Shown: positions 3,290 through 57,417, counted from the first letter of the stretch. The stretch: 64,000 bases of DNA from an uncultured bacterium (GCA_964621075.1 CAZUKV010000001.1:24144-88143), one strand, 5' to 3'. Numbers and translations are program-made. Notes: generated from the sequence alone by a model not told the origin.

Positions 3290-3780
3290 AGCATTCCTTC
3301 AATTTTATTAATGGATATTTTATTATCCTTTATACTAACTTTTTCAACAACTTTTTTTATAAAAGGTATTAAAATTTCTTTCCCATTTTCTGTTTCCAAA
3401 AACAAAATATCAGAACTTCCATAGTTGGTTACATTTCTAACTTTACCTAAAAACTCATCACCATAATATACTTCACAATCTATCAATTCATAATAATAAA
3501 AAGAGTCTTTAGATAATGTTTCTAATTCCTCTTTATCAATATAAATATATGTACCCCTGTATTCTTCTGCTTGTTCAATGGAATTTATATTTTCAAATTT
3601 TATTAATATAAATTTATTGCTAATTTTATAACTTTCTGGAACAATCTTTTTAAATTCATCTTTATTAATAAAAAGATTTTTGCTTCGCAGAAATTTAACG
3701 AACTCTTTATCCATGTCAACTTTTAAATATCCATTAATTCCATGGGGTTTAATTATTTTGCCAATCTTAAAATAATTCAT
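3286..3780 (-). CDS. rimM: 16S rRNA processing protein RimM
   Basis: GKIIKPHGINGYLKV N-terminal motif. Conserved position between the KH protein and trmD. Confidence 0.85.
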   Translation of the reverse strand: MNYFKIGKIIKPHGINGYLKVDMDKEFVKFLRSKNLFINKDEFKKIVPESYKISNKFILIKFENINSIEQAEEYRGTYIYIDKEELETLSKDSFYYYELIDCEVYYGDEFLGKVRNVTNYGSSDILFLETENGKEILIPFIKKVVEKVSIKDNKISINKIEGML

Positions 3781-24595: not shown

Positions 24596-25993
24596 TTAAT
24601 CTTCTCTAAAACTAAGTTTATCAAATCTTCCATATTCTTTATGAAAATGCAATTTTACCTTTCCTGTTGGTCCATTTCTATTCTTGGCAATAATAATATC
24701 AGTTTCATTTCCATCTTCATCTTCATTATAATATCCCTTTCTATAAAGGAATAAAACTATATCAGCATCCTGTTCAATTGCACCCGATTCCCTTAAATCC
24801 GATAATCTTGGTATTTTTTTATCTCTCTGTTCGGTTTTTCTTGAAAGCTGCGAAAGAGCAATAACTGGAACCTTGAATTCCTTGGCTATCTCTTTTAAAT
24901 ATCTTGATATTACCGTAATTTTAGCATTCATTGTATTATAATTTTCACTGGTATTCATTAACTGAAGATAGTCCACGATAACAAGATCTACCGATTTTTT
25001 TGAAATCAATCTTCGTAGTTTAGCTTTCATCTGTATAGGAGTTAATCCTGCAGTATCATCAACAAATATAGGTAATTTATCAAACTGCTTTTCAGTTTCA
25101 TATAATTTATCAAACTCAGATGCTGCTAAAAAACCCTGAAGCGCATCATGCCCTCTTATACTGGAATGCATGAAAAGAAGCCTTTGAGCTATTTCTTCAT
25201 CTGCCATTTCCAGGCTGAAAAAAACAACCCCTTTATTATGATTTAAGGCAACATTTTTTGCAATATTAATAGCAAAAGCAGTCTTTCCCATTGCCGGTCT
25301 TGCTGCTAATATTATCAGCTGCCCCGGTTTGAACCCTCCTGTTTGAGTATCCAGTAAATCATAATCAGTTTTTACATAAGTATCTAAATCGCCGCCTTTT
25401 TCTTTTATTAATTGAATATATTTAACCTGTTCTTGAATAAGTTCATTAATTTGTGCAAAACTTTTTTTTACCTTTTTTTCCTGTGCTATTTCAAATATTT
25501 TCCTTTCTGCATTTTCAAGAACGAAATCAATATCATTAGGATTTGAAACAGTTTTATCATACACTTCATTTAAAGCTTGGAGCAACCTTCTTAAAAGAAA
25601 TTTATTTCTTATTATCTTAATATATTCATCATAATTTATAAAAGTAGTTGCATTTTCCTGTATTTCCTGAATATATTTCATTCCGCCAGCTACTTCCAAT
25701 AAATCTTTGTCTTTTAAAGTATATCCCTCAGGTGTTTCTTTTAACCCTTTTAAAAAATCTTTTACTACTATAGCATCTATTCCATCACTTTGATTATTGA
25801 TTAGTTTTTTTATAGCATAAAAAATAATCTGATGTTCTCGTTTTTTAAAAATTTTTATATTATTGGATAACTCTGCAAGCACCCGATTAATTTCTTCATT
25901 ATTAAGGAAAAGTGCTCCCAGAAGAGCACTTTCCGCTTCTAAATCATAAAGCTCAATATTAGATAAATTGGTTTTATTTTTATAACCACTCAT
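24596..25993 (-). CDS. dnaB: Replicative DNA helicase DnaB
   Basis: N-terminal DnaB domain (ESALLGALF) and RecA-like domain with Walker A ARPAMGKT. Confidence 0.9.
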   Translation of the reverse strand: MSGYKNKTNLSNIELYDLEAESALLGALFLNNEEINRVLAELSNNIKIFKKREHQIIFYAIKKLINNQSDGIDAIVVKDFLKGLKETPEGYTLKDKDLLEVAGGMKYIQEIQENATTFINYDEYIKIIRNKFLLRRLLQALNEVYDKTVSNPNDIDFVLENAERKIFEIAQEKKVKKSFAQINELIQEQVKYIQLIKEKGGDLDTYVKTDYDLLDTQTGGFKPGQLIILAARPAMGKTAFAINIAKNVALNHNKGVVFFSLEMADEEIAQRLLFMHSSIRGHDALQGFLAASEFDKLYETEKQFDKLPIFVDDTAGLTPIQMKAKLRRLISKKSVDLVIVDYLQLMNTSENYNTMNAKITVISRYLKEIAKEFKVPVIALSQLSRKTEQRDKKIPRLSDLRESGAIEQDADIVLFLYRKGYYNEDEDGNETDIIIAKNRNGPTGKVKLHFHKEYGRFDKLSFRED

Positions 25994-26697
25994 TACTCTT
26001 TTTCTTTATCTTGCTCTTTTTCTTCATCCTTTTTCTTAGATTTCTCCGTTTTTTCTTCTGTTTCTACTTCTTTTTTAGATTCATCATCTTTTTTTTCTTC
26101 TTCATTTTTTTCTACCTTTTCTTCTTCTCTTTTTTCTTTTTCTTCTTTTTCTTCTTTTTCTTCTTTTTCTTTTTTATCTTTTTTTTCTTCTGTTTTATCT
26201 TGTTCTTGAGACTTTTCATTTTCTTTTTCTTCTACTTCATCTTCTTCTGACTCAACAACTAAAGAAAAATTAGCTTCAAATCCCTGTGCAAATTTTATTT
26301 TAACATCATACTCGCCAACGGTACTTATGTGTTTTTCAAGAACAATATATTTCCTGTCAATTTCTACATCTTCCTGTTTTTTTAATGCATCTTCGATATC
26401 CTGTGTAGTAACAGTACCAAAAAGTCTTCCCTGTTCACCTGTTTTTTGTTCAACAACGATCTTTTTTCCTTTAACAGCATCTAATTTCTCCTGGTAAACA
26501 GATTCTTCTCTTTGGATTTTATTTTTCTGTAATTCTAATAAATTTTCCACCATCTTTTTTGTTTTTTTGTTATATGGAAGGGCTAATCCATTTGGAATTA
26601 AATAATTTCTTGCATATCCATCTTTTACTTCTACAATTTCACCCTTCTCTCCAAGATTTGACATATTTTCTTTAAGTACTATTTTCATGATTACCAC
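25993..26697 (-). CDS. rplI: 50S ribosomal protein L9 with a C-terminal K/E-rich low-complexity tail of about 85 aa
   Basis: The N-terminal 150 aa is canonical L9 (MKIVLKENMSNLGEKGEIVEVKDGYARNYLIP). It is followed by EEKKDKKEKEEKEEKEEKEKREEEK... Confidence 0.8.
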   Translation of the reverse strand: MVIMKIVLKENMSNLGEKGEIVEVKDGYARNYLIPNGLALPYNKKTKKMVENLLELQKNKIQREESVYQEKLDAVKGKKIVVEQKTGEQGRLFGTVTTQDIEDALKKQEDVEIDRKYIVLEKHISTVGEYDVKIKFAQGFEANFSLVVESEEDEVEEKENEKSQEQDKTEEKKDKKEKEEKEEKEEKEKREEEKVEKNEEEKKDDESKKEVETEEKTEKSKKKDEEKEQDKEKE

Positions 26698-26948
26698 CTT
26701 CTATTTCTTTTACTTCTGTAATAATCAACTTTAAATGGTAGAAGTCCTATCATTCTTGCTCTTTTAATCTCACGAGTCACTTTTCTCTGATGTTTTGCAC
26801 ATGCCCCTGAACGATTTCTTGATTTTATTTTTCCTCTTTCAGTCATGAAATATTTTAAAACTTCTGGTTTTTTATATGTTACATCCTTAATGTCTATATC
26901 ACCCTTGCAAATTTTGCAGGGTCTTCTTTTATAATATTTAAAAGCCAT
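26691..26948 (-). CDS. rpsR: 30S ribosomal protein S18
   Basis: Canonical S18 (CKICKGDIDIKDVTYKKPEVLKYFMTERGKI). Confidence 0.9.
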   Translation of the reverse strand: MAFKYYKRRPCKICKGDIDIKDVTYKKPEVLKYFMTERGKIKSRNRSGACAKHQRKVTREIKRARMIGLLPFKVDYYRSKRNRRW

Positions 26949-26962
26949 TTATTCCTCCTTCT

Positions 26963-27412
26963 CTAAAATGGAATGTCATCATCCTCATCATATAGTTCTT
27001 CATTTACATCATCAATTTCCTGTTTAATTTGTTTTTTTCTTTCATTTTTGTTAACAAAAGGATTTTCATCATTATCCCTGGAGTAATTTCCGGAAGAACC
27101 ACTGCCTGTAGAAAGGAACTGTACATTAAAAGCAACTATTTCTGTTTTATATCTATTCTCGCCCTTATACTCATATTTACTTTTTTTCAATTTTCCTTCA
27201 ACTAAAACGGGTCTTCCCTTAGATAAGTACTTGCCACAATTTTCTGCTACTTTACCCCAAACAACTACATCAAGATAATTCACATTTTCAGTATAATAAT
27301 CATTTACTGCAACAGTAAAGTTCGCAACAGATTTCCCCGAATTGGTTTGTCTTAATTCAGGATCTCTTACCAGATTACCACCAATTATTACTTTATTAAA
27401 AGATACTGCCAT
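26963..27412 (-). CDS. ssb: Single-stranded DNA-binding protein
   Basis: OB-fold SSB sequence with an acidic C-terminal DDDIPF tail. Confidence 0.9.
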   Translation of the reverse strand: MAVSFNKVIIGGNLVRDPELRQTNSGKSVANFTVAVNDYYTENVNYLDVVVWGKVAENCGKYLSKGRPVLVEGKLKKSKYEYKGENRYKTEIVAFNVQFLSTGSGSSGNYSRDNDENPFVNKNERKKQIKQEIDDVNEELYDEDDDIPF

Positions 27413-52382: not shown

Positions 52383-53000
52383 TTATAATTGTTTAATAAA
52401 ATCAAAAAAATCATCAATAGGATTCACTTGATAGTTATCTTTTTTATATAAATTAATAATTTTTTTAGATTTGTTATCAACTAGTAAGAGAATAGGACCA
52501 GTGTAAATTTTATTTTTTTTGAACCATTTGTACCTATCACAGTAATATACTTCTTTTTTTATGAAATATTTATTTTTCTTTATTTTCATATTTATTTTAT
52601 TATAACCAATTATTAAAACCTTAACATTTTTAAAATCTAAAATATTTAAATACTTTACCATTTCATGAATACACTGTCCGCAATAAGATTTAGGAATTAC
52701 CATTACTAATAAATACTGATAGATAGGTCTCTCACAATAAATGAAAGTATCATCTTTTAGTCTTTTAAACTTAGAAAAGTTTAATTTTCTCCCTAATAAC
52801 TGATATCTATCTTTTTGATACTTATATCTTTTTTTGTAAAAATTTTTATAAATTTTTAGTTTTTTATTCTTTTTGTAAAAATAAAGTAATAGCATAAATA
52901 AACAAAGAACAATTACAACCTTTGATAAATTACTCATGCATAAATATTTTCCGCTTGATATTTTCAACAAATAAATCGAGCTCAAAATTATAAAATTCAT
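52383..53000 (-). CDS. Membrane-anchored/secreted protein with a CxxC motif (thioredoxin-like?), function unknown
   Basis: N-terminal hydrophobic segment. YCGQCIHEM CxxC. Paralogous in layout to 52930-53508. Confidence 0.3.
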   Translation of the reverse strand: MNFIILSSIYLLKISSGKYLCMSNLSKVVIVLCLFMLLLYFYKKNKKLKIYKNFYKKRYKYQKDRYQLLGRKLNFSKFKRLKDDTFIYCERPIYQYLLVMVIPKSYCGQCIHEMVKYLNILDFKNVKVLIIGYNKINMKIKKNKYFIKKEVYYCDRYKWFKKNKIYTGPILLLVDNKSKKIINLYKKDNYQVNPIDDFFDFIKQL

Positions 53001-53508
53001 TATTTTCCCTAATTACTAAATCTATAACATTATTTGATAATTTATCATACAATAAAAATACTGGACCTGTTTTTATGCCATTATTTTTTAGCAATCCATT
53101 CTTCTTTAACAAAAAAGAAGGATACTTTTTTCCTGTTAAAATAAAAGATTCTCCAACATTTTCTCGAAACTTAATTATTGCAACTTCTTTTGAAATAATA
53201 CTACTGATTTTTTGTCTAAAATCAAAAAGACATGAATTGCAATTTAATTTTGATAATAATACAAATAAAATATACCTTTTATTTATATTAGAATAACAAA
53301 AATGATCACTTCTTTTTTCAGGAGTATATCTTATATAATTAAATTTTTTTCTGGTTTCAAAAATTTTAACTAATTTAAACTCTTTCAATATTAAATTTTT
53401 ATAATCAGCAGTAAGATTTTGTGTTTTTTGTTTTTTACAACCCCCAATAAATAAAATACCAAAAACTATAGACATAAAAAATGTTTTTACATATATTTTT
53501 TTTTTCAT
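52930..53508 (-). CDS. Lipoprotein with a CxxC motif (thioredoxin-like?), function unknown
   Basis: Signal peptide with lipobox (IGGC). NCNSCLF CxxC. Similar size and layout to the downstream gene. Confidence 0.3.
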   Translation of the reverse strand: MKKKIYVKTFFMSIVFGILFIGGCKKQKTQNLTADYKNLILKEFKLVKIFETRKKFNYIRYTPEKRSDHFCYSNINKRYILFVLLSKLNCNSCLFDFRQKISSIISKEVAIIKFRENVGESFILTGKKYPSFLLKKNGLLKNNGIKTGPVFLLYDKLSNNVIDLVIRENNEFYNFELDLFVENIKRKIFMHE

Positions 53509-54572
53509 TGTTTATCCTTGAGAAATTCATATGTTTTTATAACGACTGTATTATCATTTTTTGTTAATCTATCAGGAATAAAAGTTTTCAATATCCCATC
53601 TAAATTATAACTTACCTCTACTTCCCTATAAAACTTTTCGTTTTCTTTAAAAGATTTTTTTTCTTTTAACTTTTTAATTAATTTACCATTTATATCCACT
53701 ATTATTTTTTTATCTATCAACATCAAACTTCCCTCTTTGTTAAAATATATTGGAGTTTTGTAGTAATTTTTTTCTATATGAGAATTGATTTCTCTTAAAA
53801 AATTACCATTAAGATCATATACATCTATAGATTTTTCACATTTTGCATTTTTGAAAGGATCTTTGCTTAACGCTTTAGAACTTGTATGCCATACTTCATT
53901 TGCAATATAGATCCTATCATTTTTCAACACTGATGGTTCCCAGGCAACATATGAAGTATGTTTAAATTTATCATATTTATTAATTATCTTGAAATTTTTA
54001 TCAAGAATAAAATTCTTATAATTCCCTTTATAATTACTATTGTTAAAAGTATAAATTCTATTATTAACAAAAGTCATTTGACTTAAACCAGACATACTCT
54101 CATACATTAGCAAAAACGACTTCAAATGTTTGATTTTTTTGCTTTCTATTTTGTAAATATTAAATCTATTTAAAACAATATCATAAGTTAAAATTTTATT
54201 TTTACTCAAAAACAAAAAATCTGAAATAGACAGAAAATCTCCTGGTCCTTTTCCTCTATCCCCAGCTTTTCCAATAAATTTACCGTTTTGTTTATTAAAA
54301 ATATACACTGATGTATAATTACCTCTTGCTAATAGTCCAATATACTTGTTATTTATTTTCAAACTAATGATATTCCCTAATCCAAACTCTAAGTATAGAA
54401 TATACTTATTTTGTAATGTAAAAAGATTCGTAAAATTTTCTGATTTTTTTATTCTTTTCAAATCTTTTTTTCTTATTGATACTCGATCTAACAATTTTTT
54501 TTCTTTCCTACAACTAAAATTAAAACCAAGAATTGCAACAAGACAACATAATAGAAAAATTTTTTTGTACAT
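53505..54572 (-). CDS. Lipoprotein, possibly a beta-propeller, function unknown
   Basis: Lipobox (FSC). Repeated ...Y...D/N...G... segments suggestive of beta-propeller blades. Weak call. Confidence 0.3.
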   Translation of the reverse strand: MYKKIFLLCCLVAILGFNFSCRKEKKLLDRVSIRKKDLKRIKKSENFTNLFTLQNKYILYLEFGLGNIISLKINNKYIGLLARGNYTSVYIFNKQNGKFIGKAGDRGKGPGDFLSISDFLFLSKNKILTYDIVLNRFNIYKIESKKIKHLKSFLLMYESMSGLSQMTFVNNRIYTFNNSNYKGNYKNFILDKNFKIINKYDKFKHTSYVAWEPSVLKNDRIYIANEVWHTSSKALSKDPFKNAKCEKSIDVYDLNGNFLREINSHIEKNYYKTPIYFNKEGSLMLIDKKIIVDINGKLIKKLKEKKSFKENEKFYREVEVSYNLDGILKTFIPDRLTKNDNTVVIKTYEFLKDKQ

Positions 54573-54630
54573 AAGAAATCCTTTTCTGTTAATATATTTA
54601 ATTCAAAGGGGGAATCATTTTACATAATAT

Positions 54631-54939
54631 TTACCAGCACTGGAATGTTACATCACATTCTTTCATGTTTCCTTCATAACAATAATTCATTTTCCCAGTC
54701 CTTATAATTTCACTTCCATCCGGTGTCACTTCGATAACAACACAAGACATATATCCTAATTTATAAAAATCTCCAAATGCATCTCTTATACCCTGCCCAG
54801 AGCTTCCGCCTGGAAGCTCACCAGACACCCCATCTATTATCTCAATAAGTCTTCTGTTAGGAGATGTCTGGGCTTTAATAAGAGATAAACAAAAAAACAT
54901 AAAAAAAATCAATAATATAATAAATATTTTTTTATTCAT
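54631..54939 (-). CDS. Small secreted Cys-rich protein (102-aa precursor, mature form about 80 aa)
   Basis: Signal peptide ending ...LIKA. Five Cys in the mature part (C-terminal ...CYEGNMKECDVTFQCW). Confidence 0.5.
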   Translation of the reverse strand: MNKKIFIILLIFFMFFCLSLIKAQTSPNRRLIEIIDGVSGELPGGSSGQGIRDAFGDFYKLGYMSCVVIEVTPDGSEIIRTGKMNYCYEGNMKECDVTFQCW

Positions 54940-55075: not shown

Positions 55076-55127
55076 CACTTTATATACCAGGTTTTTAGAT
55101 TAAAAACTTGACACTTAATTAGAATAT
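55067..55127. repeat. 61-bp perfect repeat, copy 2, in the divergent intergenic region between the Cys-rich peptide gene and HU
   Basis: Identical to 52299-52359, including the 7-3-7 palindrome. Confidence 0.9.
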
Positions 55128-55192
55128 GTTAATCTTTTTTTCAGACATTACTATCTTATTAGTATTTAACAACATAACTTGCAGGAGGAATA

Positions 55193-55468
55193 ATGACAAA
55201 GAATGATTTGAGTGAAAAAATATGGAATAGATATGAAGAACTTACAAAAAAAGAATCAAAGGAAATTATTGACCTTTTGATGAAAGAAATAAAAAATGCT
55301 TTGAAAAATAATGATAGTGTGGAATTGAGGGGATTTGGTACTTTCAAAACAAAAATTAGAAAAGCCCGTACAGCAAGAAACCCGCATACAGGGGAACAAA
55401 TTGAAGTTCCAAGAAAAAAAGTTCCTTATTTTAAACCCTCACCGAAATTTAAAGAAAAAGTGAATTAA
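55193..55468 (+). CDS. HU/IHF family DNA-binding protein
   Basis: ELRGFGTFKTKIRKARTARNPHTGEQIEVP is a canonical HU arm. Confidence 0.85.
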   Translation: MTKNDLSEKIWNRYEELTKKESKEIIDLLMKEIKNALKNNDSVELRGFGTFKTKIRKARTARNPHTGEQIEVPRKKVPYFKPSPKFKEKVN

Positions 55469-55479
55469 GGAGGTGTAGT

Positions 55480-55575
55480 ATGAGCTCTGTAAAGAAAAAA
55501 AGAAAAAAGAAAATGAACAAACATAAAAGGAAAAAAAGATCAAGAAAAAACAGGCATAAGAAAAAGAAAAAATAA
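55480..55575 (+). CDS. 31-aa extremely basic Lys/Arg-rich peptide (MSSVKKKRKKKMNKHKRKKRSRKNRHKKKKK), apparently co-transcribed with HU
   Basis: AAGGAGG RBS 6-7 nt upstream of the ATG and only 11 nt after the HU stop. Followed by a strong terminator. Not in the ORF track because it is short. Confidence 0.45.
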   Translation: MSSVKKKRKKKMNKHKRKKRSRKNRHKKKKK

Positions 55576-55597
55576 ATAATCAACCTTATATAAATAT

Positions 55598-55635
55598 AAA
55601 ACACCCAAAATTTTTTGGGTGTTTTCCTATTTTTG
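55598..55635 (+). terminator. Rho-independent terminator after the HU-basic peptide unit
   Basis: AACACCCAAAA-tt-TTTTGGGTGTT hairpin followed by TTCCTATTTTTG. Confidence 0.7.
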
Positions 55636-55684
55636 TTAATATTCCTTGCAATAACAATTTTTTTGTATTATATTTTACCTGATT

Positions 55685-57133: not shown

Positions 57134-57208
57134 ACGGGGTGTAGCGCAGTCCGGCAGCGCACATGCATGGGGTGCATGGTGTCGGAGGTTCAAATCCTCT
57201 CACCCCGA
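57134..57208 (+). tRNA. tRNA-Pro (anticodon GGG); coordinates +/-2 nt
   Basis: Cloverleaf: acceptor CGGGGTG/CACCCCG, D arm GCGC-AGTCCGGCA-GCGC, anticodon arm CATGC-AT GGG GT-GCATG, T arm GGAGG-TTCAAAT-CCTCT, discriminator A. G37 follows anticodon GGG. Confidence 0.8.
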
Positions 57209-57237
57209 TTTTTATAATGAATGCGGGGGTACAATTT

Positions 57238-57417
57238 ATGAAAAAAGAAAAATTGAAAAGAATTGATGAATTATGGCATAAACAAAAAACAGAAGGTCTA
57301 ACGGATGAAGAAAAAAAAGAACAACAAAAATTAAGAAAAGAATATTTGAAATCTATTAAAGGAAATTTAAAGGCTCAGCTGGAAAATATAAAAAATATAA
57401 GAGAATCAAAGAATTAA
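57238..57417 (+). CDS. UPF0291/DUF896 family small protein (YnzC-like), start trimmed to the Met after the tRNA
   Basis: MKKEKLKRIDELWHKQKTEGLTDEEKKEQQKLRKEYLKSIKGNLKAQLENI resembles the Bacillus YnzC family. The longer ORF (57163) overlaps the tRNA. Confidence 0.55.
   Translation: MKKEKLKRIDELWHKQKTEGLTDEEKKEQQKLRKEYLKSIKGNLKAQLENIKNIRESKN

Follow-up and report, generated by a model that had tools for sequence, protein, structure and literature searches.

A probable bS22-family ribosomal protein gene, left unannotated behind an HU/IHF-family gene in a relative of Candidatus Mcinerneyibacterium

We describe a 31-codon micro-ORF that is, in all likelihood, a translated gene of the bS22 ribosomal protein family and the second cistron of a two-gene transcript with an HU/IHF-family gene. 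It lies in a 64,000-nucleotide stretch of DNA from an uncultured bacterium, which we refer to as the window. Judging by its residue order, the encoded peptide is very probably an unannotated and previously unlisted member of a known ribosomal protein family rather than a new type of nucleoid peptide. The host, whose G+C content is 28%, is related to Candidatus Mcinerneyibacterium, a genus that NCBI taxonomy places in a candidate phylum and for which a literature search on the genus name found nothing.

In bacteria, the protein bS22 corresponds to the domain with which mitochondrial mS38 (AURKAIP1/Cox24) ends at its C-terminus. This polycationic helix has ~30 residues, and its contact with the 23S rRNA constitutes an extra intersubunit bridge. 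In mycobacterial, Flavobacterium, Porphyromonas and Borrelia ribosomes, bS22 occupies a pocket formed by h2, h27, h44 and h45 and contacts the 23S rRNA (PMC10618245, PMC7797042, PMC12123416, PMC10081302), and eukaryotic eL41, a polycationic helix of ~25 aa, sits in the equivalent rRNA pocket (PMC10618245, PMC10081302). The Borrelia protein was unannotated and was found only through its cryo-EM density, and the authors of that structure predicted further annotation gaps of this kind (PMC10618245). Standard mass spectrometry in Borrelia had detected all the other ribosomal proteins but missed bS22.

Results

A micro-ORF with its own Shine-Dalgarno sequence lies between an HU/IHF-family gene and an intrinsic terminator

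The locus comprises the following features.

55108-55135, + strand: candidate promoter of the predicted HU-bS22 operon, with -35 TTGACA at 55108-55113, a 16-nt spacer and an extended -10 TGtTAATCT at 55127-55135
55183-55188, + strand: Shine-Dalgarno sequence of the HU gene, AGGAGG, 4 nt 5' of the ATG at 55193 and conserved in relatives
55193-55468, + strand: gene for an HU/IHF-family DNA-binding protein of 91 aa (PF00216)
55467-55475, + strand: Shine-Dalgarno sequence of the micro-ORF, AAGGAGGTG, overlapping the HU stop codon
55480-55575, + strand: micro-ORF of 31 codons, probable bS22 family, encoding MSSVKKKRKKKMNKHKRKKRSRKNRHKKKKK
55598-55635, + strand: intrinsic terminator, a hairpin at 55598-55625 of 12 pairs with a 4-nt loop, followed by the T-rich tail CCTATTTTTG

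The protein encoded by the upstream gene matched the Pfam model PF00216 (Bac_DNA_binding) over residues 1-91 with 112 bits against a cut-off of 22.4. Its best NCBIfam matches were IHF-beta and IHF-alpha, at 86-91 bits and under their cut-offs. As neither the IHF nor the HU equivalog cut-offs were reached, we name the gene at the level of the HU/IHF family, with its subtype undecided, and write HU for short.

The HU gene ends in TAA (55466-55468), and the ATG of the micro-ORF follows 11 nt past this stop codon at 55480. Re-reading the DNA returned exactly the same 31 residues, at the same coordinates, that a sequence-only reading of the window had proposed; that reading had counted 25 Lys, Arg or His residues among the 31, a figure that we correct to 23 (74%). 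The GGAGG core of AAGGAGGTG is spaced 6 nt from the ATG, and the whole Shine-Dalgarno sequence is identical across all seven same-species contigs. Within the window, which has a G+C content of 28.4%, AAGGAGG occurs 20 times, where we estimate from the base composition that ~2 chance occurrences would be expected, and for 15 of the 20 an ORF of at least 80 aa starts 3-11 nt further on. The sequence AAGGAGGT occurs five times, four of them ahead of long ORFs and the fifth ahead of the micro-ORF. Since a 5-mer Shine-Dalgarno core is present for about half of the ORFs of at least 150 aa in the window, the organism uses Shine-Dalgarno-led initiation.

The terminator begins 22 nt beyond the stop codon of the micro-ORF. 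Its predicted fold has a dG of -15.1 kcal/mol (z = -3.9 versus shuffles), a scan for terminator-like sites found 2 against 0.2 expected, and the sole difference among strains is a 1-nt deletion in the loop. We therefore confirm the 12-bp hairpin and agree with the sequence-only reading that its position directly after the micro-ORF is suggestive, and we likewise judge sound its argument that a strong ribosome binding site at optimal spacing speaks for translation. Owing to its symmetry, the hairpin scores as a terminator on the minus strand as well; there is no converging minus-strand gene.

At the other end of the locus, CTTGACA and ATATGTTA stand unchanged in the window and in three sister loci that have otherwise diverged from it (L001, L002 and L016, described below), and from this conservation we infer a promoter upstream of HU and the micro-ORF. 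The candidate has a weak -10 hexamer in the window, and the site was absent from the consensus scan list.

The encoded peptide resembles bS22 and mS38

When the peptide was run with phmmer against every chain sequence in the PDB (E <= 10), it matched six chains, and all six were bS22, mS38 or DUF1713 proteins. The best match was Flavobacterium johnsoniae bS22 (7jil_5; E = 0.004), and matches were also obtained with Borrelia burgdorferi bS22 (8fmw_V; E = 0.022) and with 9i5v_10 (E = 0.023), a 30-aa "AURKAIP1/COX24 domain-containing protein" that we take to be the bS22 (30 aa) of the P. gingivalis ribosome paper. The remaining matches were two mitochondrial mS38 chains and one DUF1713 chain. Over their aligned parts, the peptide and the Bacteroidota/Borrelia proteins (F. 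johnsoniae Fjoh_1533, 7JIL; P. gingivalis, 9I5V; B. burgdorferi bb0822, 8FMW) are 63-64% identical. Like the peptide, these proteins are short and strongly basic (28-31 aa, about 60-75% Lys/Arg), and they have the C-terminal motif HKRKK[RK]-x3-NRHKK(KK) in common with it. They too were unannotated or labelled "hypothetical" until cryo-EM maps were obtained. The N-terminal half of the peptide sets it apart from them: it carries SVKKKRKKKMNKHK, the canonical mS38/COX24_C motif, whose 14 residues are identical to residues 112-125 of a plant mS38 (6xyw_BB).

We also compared the peptide with the family models. PF08213 (COX24_C) aligned over positions 1-30 of 33 with 22.0 bits (E = 1.6e-4), 1 bit short of its gathering score of 23. 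The NCBIfam model NF047430 (ribo_bS22) gave 9.3 bits (E = 1.2) against a curated cut-off of 34, and for this reason we do not file the peptide under that equivalog. These cut-offs do not define the structural family, however, because proven bS22 proteins fail them as well: the Flavobacterium, 9i5v and Borrelia proteins, taken over the portions that had aligned in the PDB search, scored 0, 8.4 and 0 bits, respectively, on PF08213, and the same portions obtained no score on NF047430. COX24_C fits the window peptide far better than it fits these proven Bacteroidota/Borrelia proteins. As a control, mycobacterial bS22 scored 46.2 bits on PF08213 and 62.6 bits on NF047430; the M. smegmatis sequence used is validated solely by these two scores. 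Both models thus cover the actinobacterial/mitochondrial sequence type only, and NF047430 recognises just the actinobacterial one.

In length and basicity (31 aa, 74%) the peptide falls within the bS22 range that we applied, which asks for at least about 60% Lys/Arg and for the 28-33 aa that the published members of the family span (PMC10618245, PMC7797042, PMC10081302). Its mass is 3.9 kDa, and trypsin would destroy it. A single-sequence AlphaFold2 model gave a single helix over residues 3-30 with no bend and a mean pLDDT of 96.4, a result that agrees with the published proteins but is weakly discriminating, and a Foldseek search of this single-helix model against the PDB returned 0 matches. 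A phmmer search of 1.84 billion representative proteins with the peptide also returned 0 matches, as expected for a query of 31 biased residues in so large a search space. An artificial tandem duplicate of the peptide yielded 8000 word candidates, with no match at E <= 0.01.

The similarity lies in residue order rather than in charge alone

The sequence-only reading had conceded that an ORF could arise by chance in so A-rich a tract. In that case the micro-ORF would be untranslated and functionless, and its likeness to bS22 would be an artefact of Lys/Arg composition. The tract is indeed 68% A, the curated family cut-offs were not reached, no orthologue was found in relatives at the loci examined, and the window offers an instance of a strongly basic ORF that arose purely by chance. 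This second ORF (26112-26219, - strand; 35 aa, poly-Lys, MKSLKNKIKQKKKKIKKKKKKKKKKKKKKKEKKKR) results when the Glu/Lys-rich tail encoded in the L9 gene is read out of frame. It has no Shine-Dalgarno sequence, no Pfam match at E <= 10 and no PDB match; it is a chance ORF, and it served as our negative control. Because an alternative frame of L9 also yields a poly-Lys ORF, basic composition alone is no evidence for a gene. When the window was simulated 100 times with a third-order Markov model, 0 ORFs of at least 25 aa with at least 60% Lys, Arg or His were obtained, and the real window has two.

The L9 gene itself (25993-26697, - strand; PF01281 and PF03948) has an extra low-complexity, Glu/Lys-rich C-terminal tail of about 85 residues. 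It forms part of the conserved cluster ssb - rpsR (S18) - rplI (L9) - dnaB at 24596-27412 on the minus strand, about 28 kb from the bS22 ORF and on the other strand from it.

Composition was controlled for by shuffling the residues of the peptide and repeating both ungapped and gapped BLOSUM62 local alignments, with 1000-2000 shuffles per comparison. At most 1 of the 1000-2000 shuffles reached the observed bS22/mS38 score in any comparison, and 0 of 1000-2000 were as good against the PDB-derived bS22 chains. The z scores were 9.1-9.6 for Flavobacterium bS22, 7.5-7.8 for 9i5v, 6.7-7.0 for Borrelia bS22, 6.6-7.0 for mS38 and 5.1-5.3 for M. smegmatis bS22. By the same measure, the similarity to eL41 is unconvincing (z = 2.3; 63/2000 shuffles as good). 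Nine composition-matched shuffles searched against Pfam gave no match at E <= 10. Since neither the shuffles nor the poly-Lys control match as the peptide does, the similarity to bS22 and mS38 resides in residue order and not just in charge, which supports the possibility that the sequence-only reading had placed second, that of an unrecognised small ribosomal protein.

The surroundings of the micro-ORF argue against a chance origin as well. Only the proposed frame is open across the tract, with stops in the other two forward frames; the Shine-Dalgarno sequence is perfect and properly spaced, and its motif is a marker of gene starts in this genome; a terminator follows immediately downstream; and the length is exactly within the bS22 range. 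With the shuffle controls, these features make it very improbable that the micro-ORF is a chance ORF.

Behind HU, the micro-ORF was found in one species only and is missed by gene callers

Scans with the HU protein gave 9 loci from genomes and 21 from metagenomes, and the micro-ORF was found solely in same-species contigs. The exact HU protein is present on 11 contigs. On the six of these that were listed (ENA, NCBI, Logan, JGI), no gene was called between HU and its downstream neighbour in 6/6, in keeping with the original description of the micro-ORF as unannotated, and an exact look-up of the peptide in a collection of 15 billion proteins found it absent. Its shortness explains why gene callers have missed it. 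The peptide is identical on seven same-species contigs (L010-L015 and L035). Among L010-L015 and the window the ORF has two substitutions, both synonymous (AGG to AGA) and too few for dN/dS, and its long A-runs show no indels, as would be consistent with a gene.

The closest HU orthologues (79-81% identity) are encoded by two MAGs, of which one belongs to Candidatus Mcinerneyibacterium aminivorans (L002) and the other is L001, and by a metagenome contig (L016). The window and these sisters share the order glycosyltransferase, M20-like peptidase, HU, GAF-GGDEF protein and tRNA-Pro. They differ in the slot between HU and GGDEF, which in all three sisters contains a gene for a 160-aa Metallophos_2 phosphoesterase and in the window contains the Shine-Dalgarno sequence, the micro-ORF and the terminator; the micro-ORF is absent from the syntenic position of all three. 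A basic micro-ORF behind HU was found on same-species contigs only and at none of 29 HU-related loci of other taxa. Beyond the three sisters, 26 such loci were covered, including Thermotogota, Syntrophaceae and Spirochaetota. A further bS22-like motif was found neither in the rest of the window nor in any of the fetched loci.

The phosphoesterase gene occupies 3288-3770 in L001, 3306-3789 in L002 and about 2790-3300 in L016. Its ATG overlaps the HU stop codon in L001 (ATGA), and in L002 a frameshift at a C-run (about 3505-3512) breaks it in two, which probably reflects faulty assembly. We considered whether the micro-ORF might be a remnant of this gene and rejected the idea, as tblastn found no match in the 64-kb window and alignment of the slot DNA gave no clear similarity. 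The HU proteins of the sisters end 4-5 residues later (...VNNSQLK, ...VNGNDQ) than that of the window (...KVN; window 55443-55468, L001 3251-3291, L002 3251-3288), so that synteny breaks off precisely where the HU gene of the window stops. On the other side of HU, four minus-strand genes (205, 192, 355 and 102 aa; 52383-54939) separate the candidate HU promoter from the gene for the M20-like peptidase. Pfam identified few or no domains in them, one being a DUF5128 six-bladed beta-propeller. They are absent from L001, L002 and L016, where the peptidase and HU genes adjoin, and the block looks like a lineage-specific insertion beside the HU operon.

The sequence-only reading had favoured a protamine- or H1-like peptide tied to HU. 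Such a polycation would be made stoichiometrically with HU and would neutralise or compact DNA, possibly beside a ribosomal role. A charge as extreme as that of the peptide would bind any nucleic acid, and the 11-nt gap, the overlap of Shine-Dalgarno sequence and stop codon, and the shared terminator suggest that the micro-ORF is co-transcribed with, and probably translationally coupled to, the HU/IHF gene. However, it is a ribosomal protein family that the peptide matches, in residue order and not just in composition, and no protamine, H1 or other DNA-binding family was matched in Pfam, NCBIfam or the PDB. The linkage to HU is moreover limited to one species: the three closest relatives have the Metallophos_2 gene in its place, and 0/29 of the HU-related loci from other taxa have a basic micro-ORF there. 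That the linkage is not conserved argues against a dedicated HU partner or nucleoid role and for incidental co-expression, and we regard a DNA counter-ion made alongside HU as very unlikely.

It is more improbable still, to the point of being negligible, that the micro-ORF, a small ORF between two genes, is a leader peptide or uORF of the downstream GGDEF gene or, given that cationic peptides can be antimicrobial, a secreted or toxic peptide, as a strong terminator stands between it and the GGDEF gene, a separate promoter-like site (55646-55674) precedes the latter and has an equivalent even in those relatives from whose locus the micro-ORF is missing, the peptide has no signal peptide and no hydrophobic segment, and neither role would explain the specific similarity to bS22.

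The GGDEF gene is followed immediately by one for tRNA-Pro(GGG) (57135-57208, + strand). The longest-ORF call of a DUF896 gene (57163-57417, + strand; 84 aa) overlaps this tRNA; a version of 58-59 aa starting from 57241 matches DUF896 fully and is the one called on some contigs.

The peptide combines features of two bS22 sequence types

The Bacteroidota/Borrelia proteins on the one hand and the mS38/mycobacterial proteins on the other are not significantly similar to each other in a composition-controlled test (z = -0.9 to 1.4), whereas the window peptide is similar to both groups. Its N-terminal half (residues 1-16) strongly resembles mS38 (z = 8.6), followed by M. smegmatis bS22 (z = 4.6), and is only weakly similar to the N-termini of the Bacteroidota/Borrelia proteins (z about 3). 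The C-terminal half (residues 15-31) resembles the Bacteroidota/Borrelia proteins (z = 5.4-7.6), unlike the tails of mS38 and mycobacterial bS22. By its HKRKKR-x3-NRHKKKK tail, the predicted peptide is of the Bacteroidota/Borrelia type, while keeping the COX24_C motif at its N-terminus.

The two groups also differ from the peptide in other respects. Mitochondrial mS38 (AURKAIP1/yeast Cox24; PF08213, formerly DUF1713) is a protein of 110-500 aa with the domain at its C-terminus, whereas the peptide is the domain standing alone, and beyond HK the tails of the two differ (C-terminal halves, z = -0.6). Actinobacterial bS22 (M. smegmatis MSMEG_0945, M. tuberculosis Rv0550B) is also stand-alone, ~33 aa long and polycationic, and it too comes from a bacterium that uses Shine-Dalgarno sequences; its N-terminal half is similar to that of the peptide, but its C-terminal tail is unrelated. 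Compared with the Bacteroidota/Borrelia genes, the micro-ORF starts with ATG behind a strong Shine-Dalgarno sequence, whereas Borrelia bS22 starts with GUG and the Bacteroidota genes are without a Shine-Dalgarno sequence. The host phyla differ as well, a candidate phylum here versus Bacteroidota and Borrelia, and ribosome binding has been seen in the latter, whereas the assignment here is made from sequence.

Whether the bS22 types descend from a common ancestor or have converged was left open, with convergence speculated upon, for P. gingivalis (PMC12123416). The mosaic peptide suggests, with modest support, that mS38 and both bacterial types of bS22 go back to one ancestor. As the two strong similarities cover largely different halves of the peptide, the mosaic is not a strict argument from transitive homology. 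We put forward only tentatively, and with more doubt than confidence, that the peptide may be an evolutionary intermediate between the two bS22 types.

Discussion

The arrangement of signals at this locus suggests how the gene could work. A bicistronic HU-bS22 mRNA would run from the conserved candidate promoter upstream to the hairpin at 55598-55625, and the micro-ORF would be translated from its own strong Shine-Dalgarno sequence. Since this sequence overlaps the HU stop codon, ribosomes could either load de novo or reinitiate after translating HU. By homology, the product would be incorporated into the 30S subunit, where it would insert into the 16S rRNA pocket of h2, h27, h44 and h45 near the decoding centre and would contact the 23S rRNA. 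There are no rRNA genes in the window. The place of the micro-ORF behind HU most likely just lends a ribosomal component a strong, growth-linked promoter.

Assignment of the micro-ORF to bS22 would fill an annotation gap, as none of the gene calls made for this organism includes this probable gene for a ribosomal protein. The assignment would also extend bS22 past the Actinobacteria, Bacteroidota and Borrelia of the solved structures cited here to a candidate phylum related to Candidatus Mcinerneyibacterium. The find holds no surprise for ribosome specialists, as the Borrelia structure paper explicitly foresaw such cases (PMC10618245). As the host uses Shine-Dalgarno-led initiation, it would add to the argument made by mycobacteria that bS22 is not tied to Shine-Dalgarno-independent initiation. 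In the ribosome, bS22 adjoins the aminoglycoside site in h44 (PMC10081302), and its presence or absence is therefore relevant when properties of ribosomes are inferred from genomes.

If the tentative reading of the peptide as an intermediate were true, both bS22 types and mS38 would share descent rather than having arisen by convergence. The family would then be old and widespread, and it would have been systematically missed by gene callers, including in candidate phyla and in bacteria that use Shine-Dalgarno sequences.
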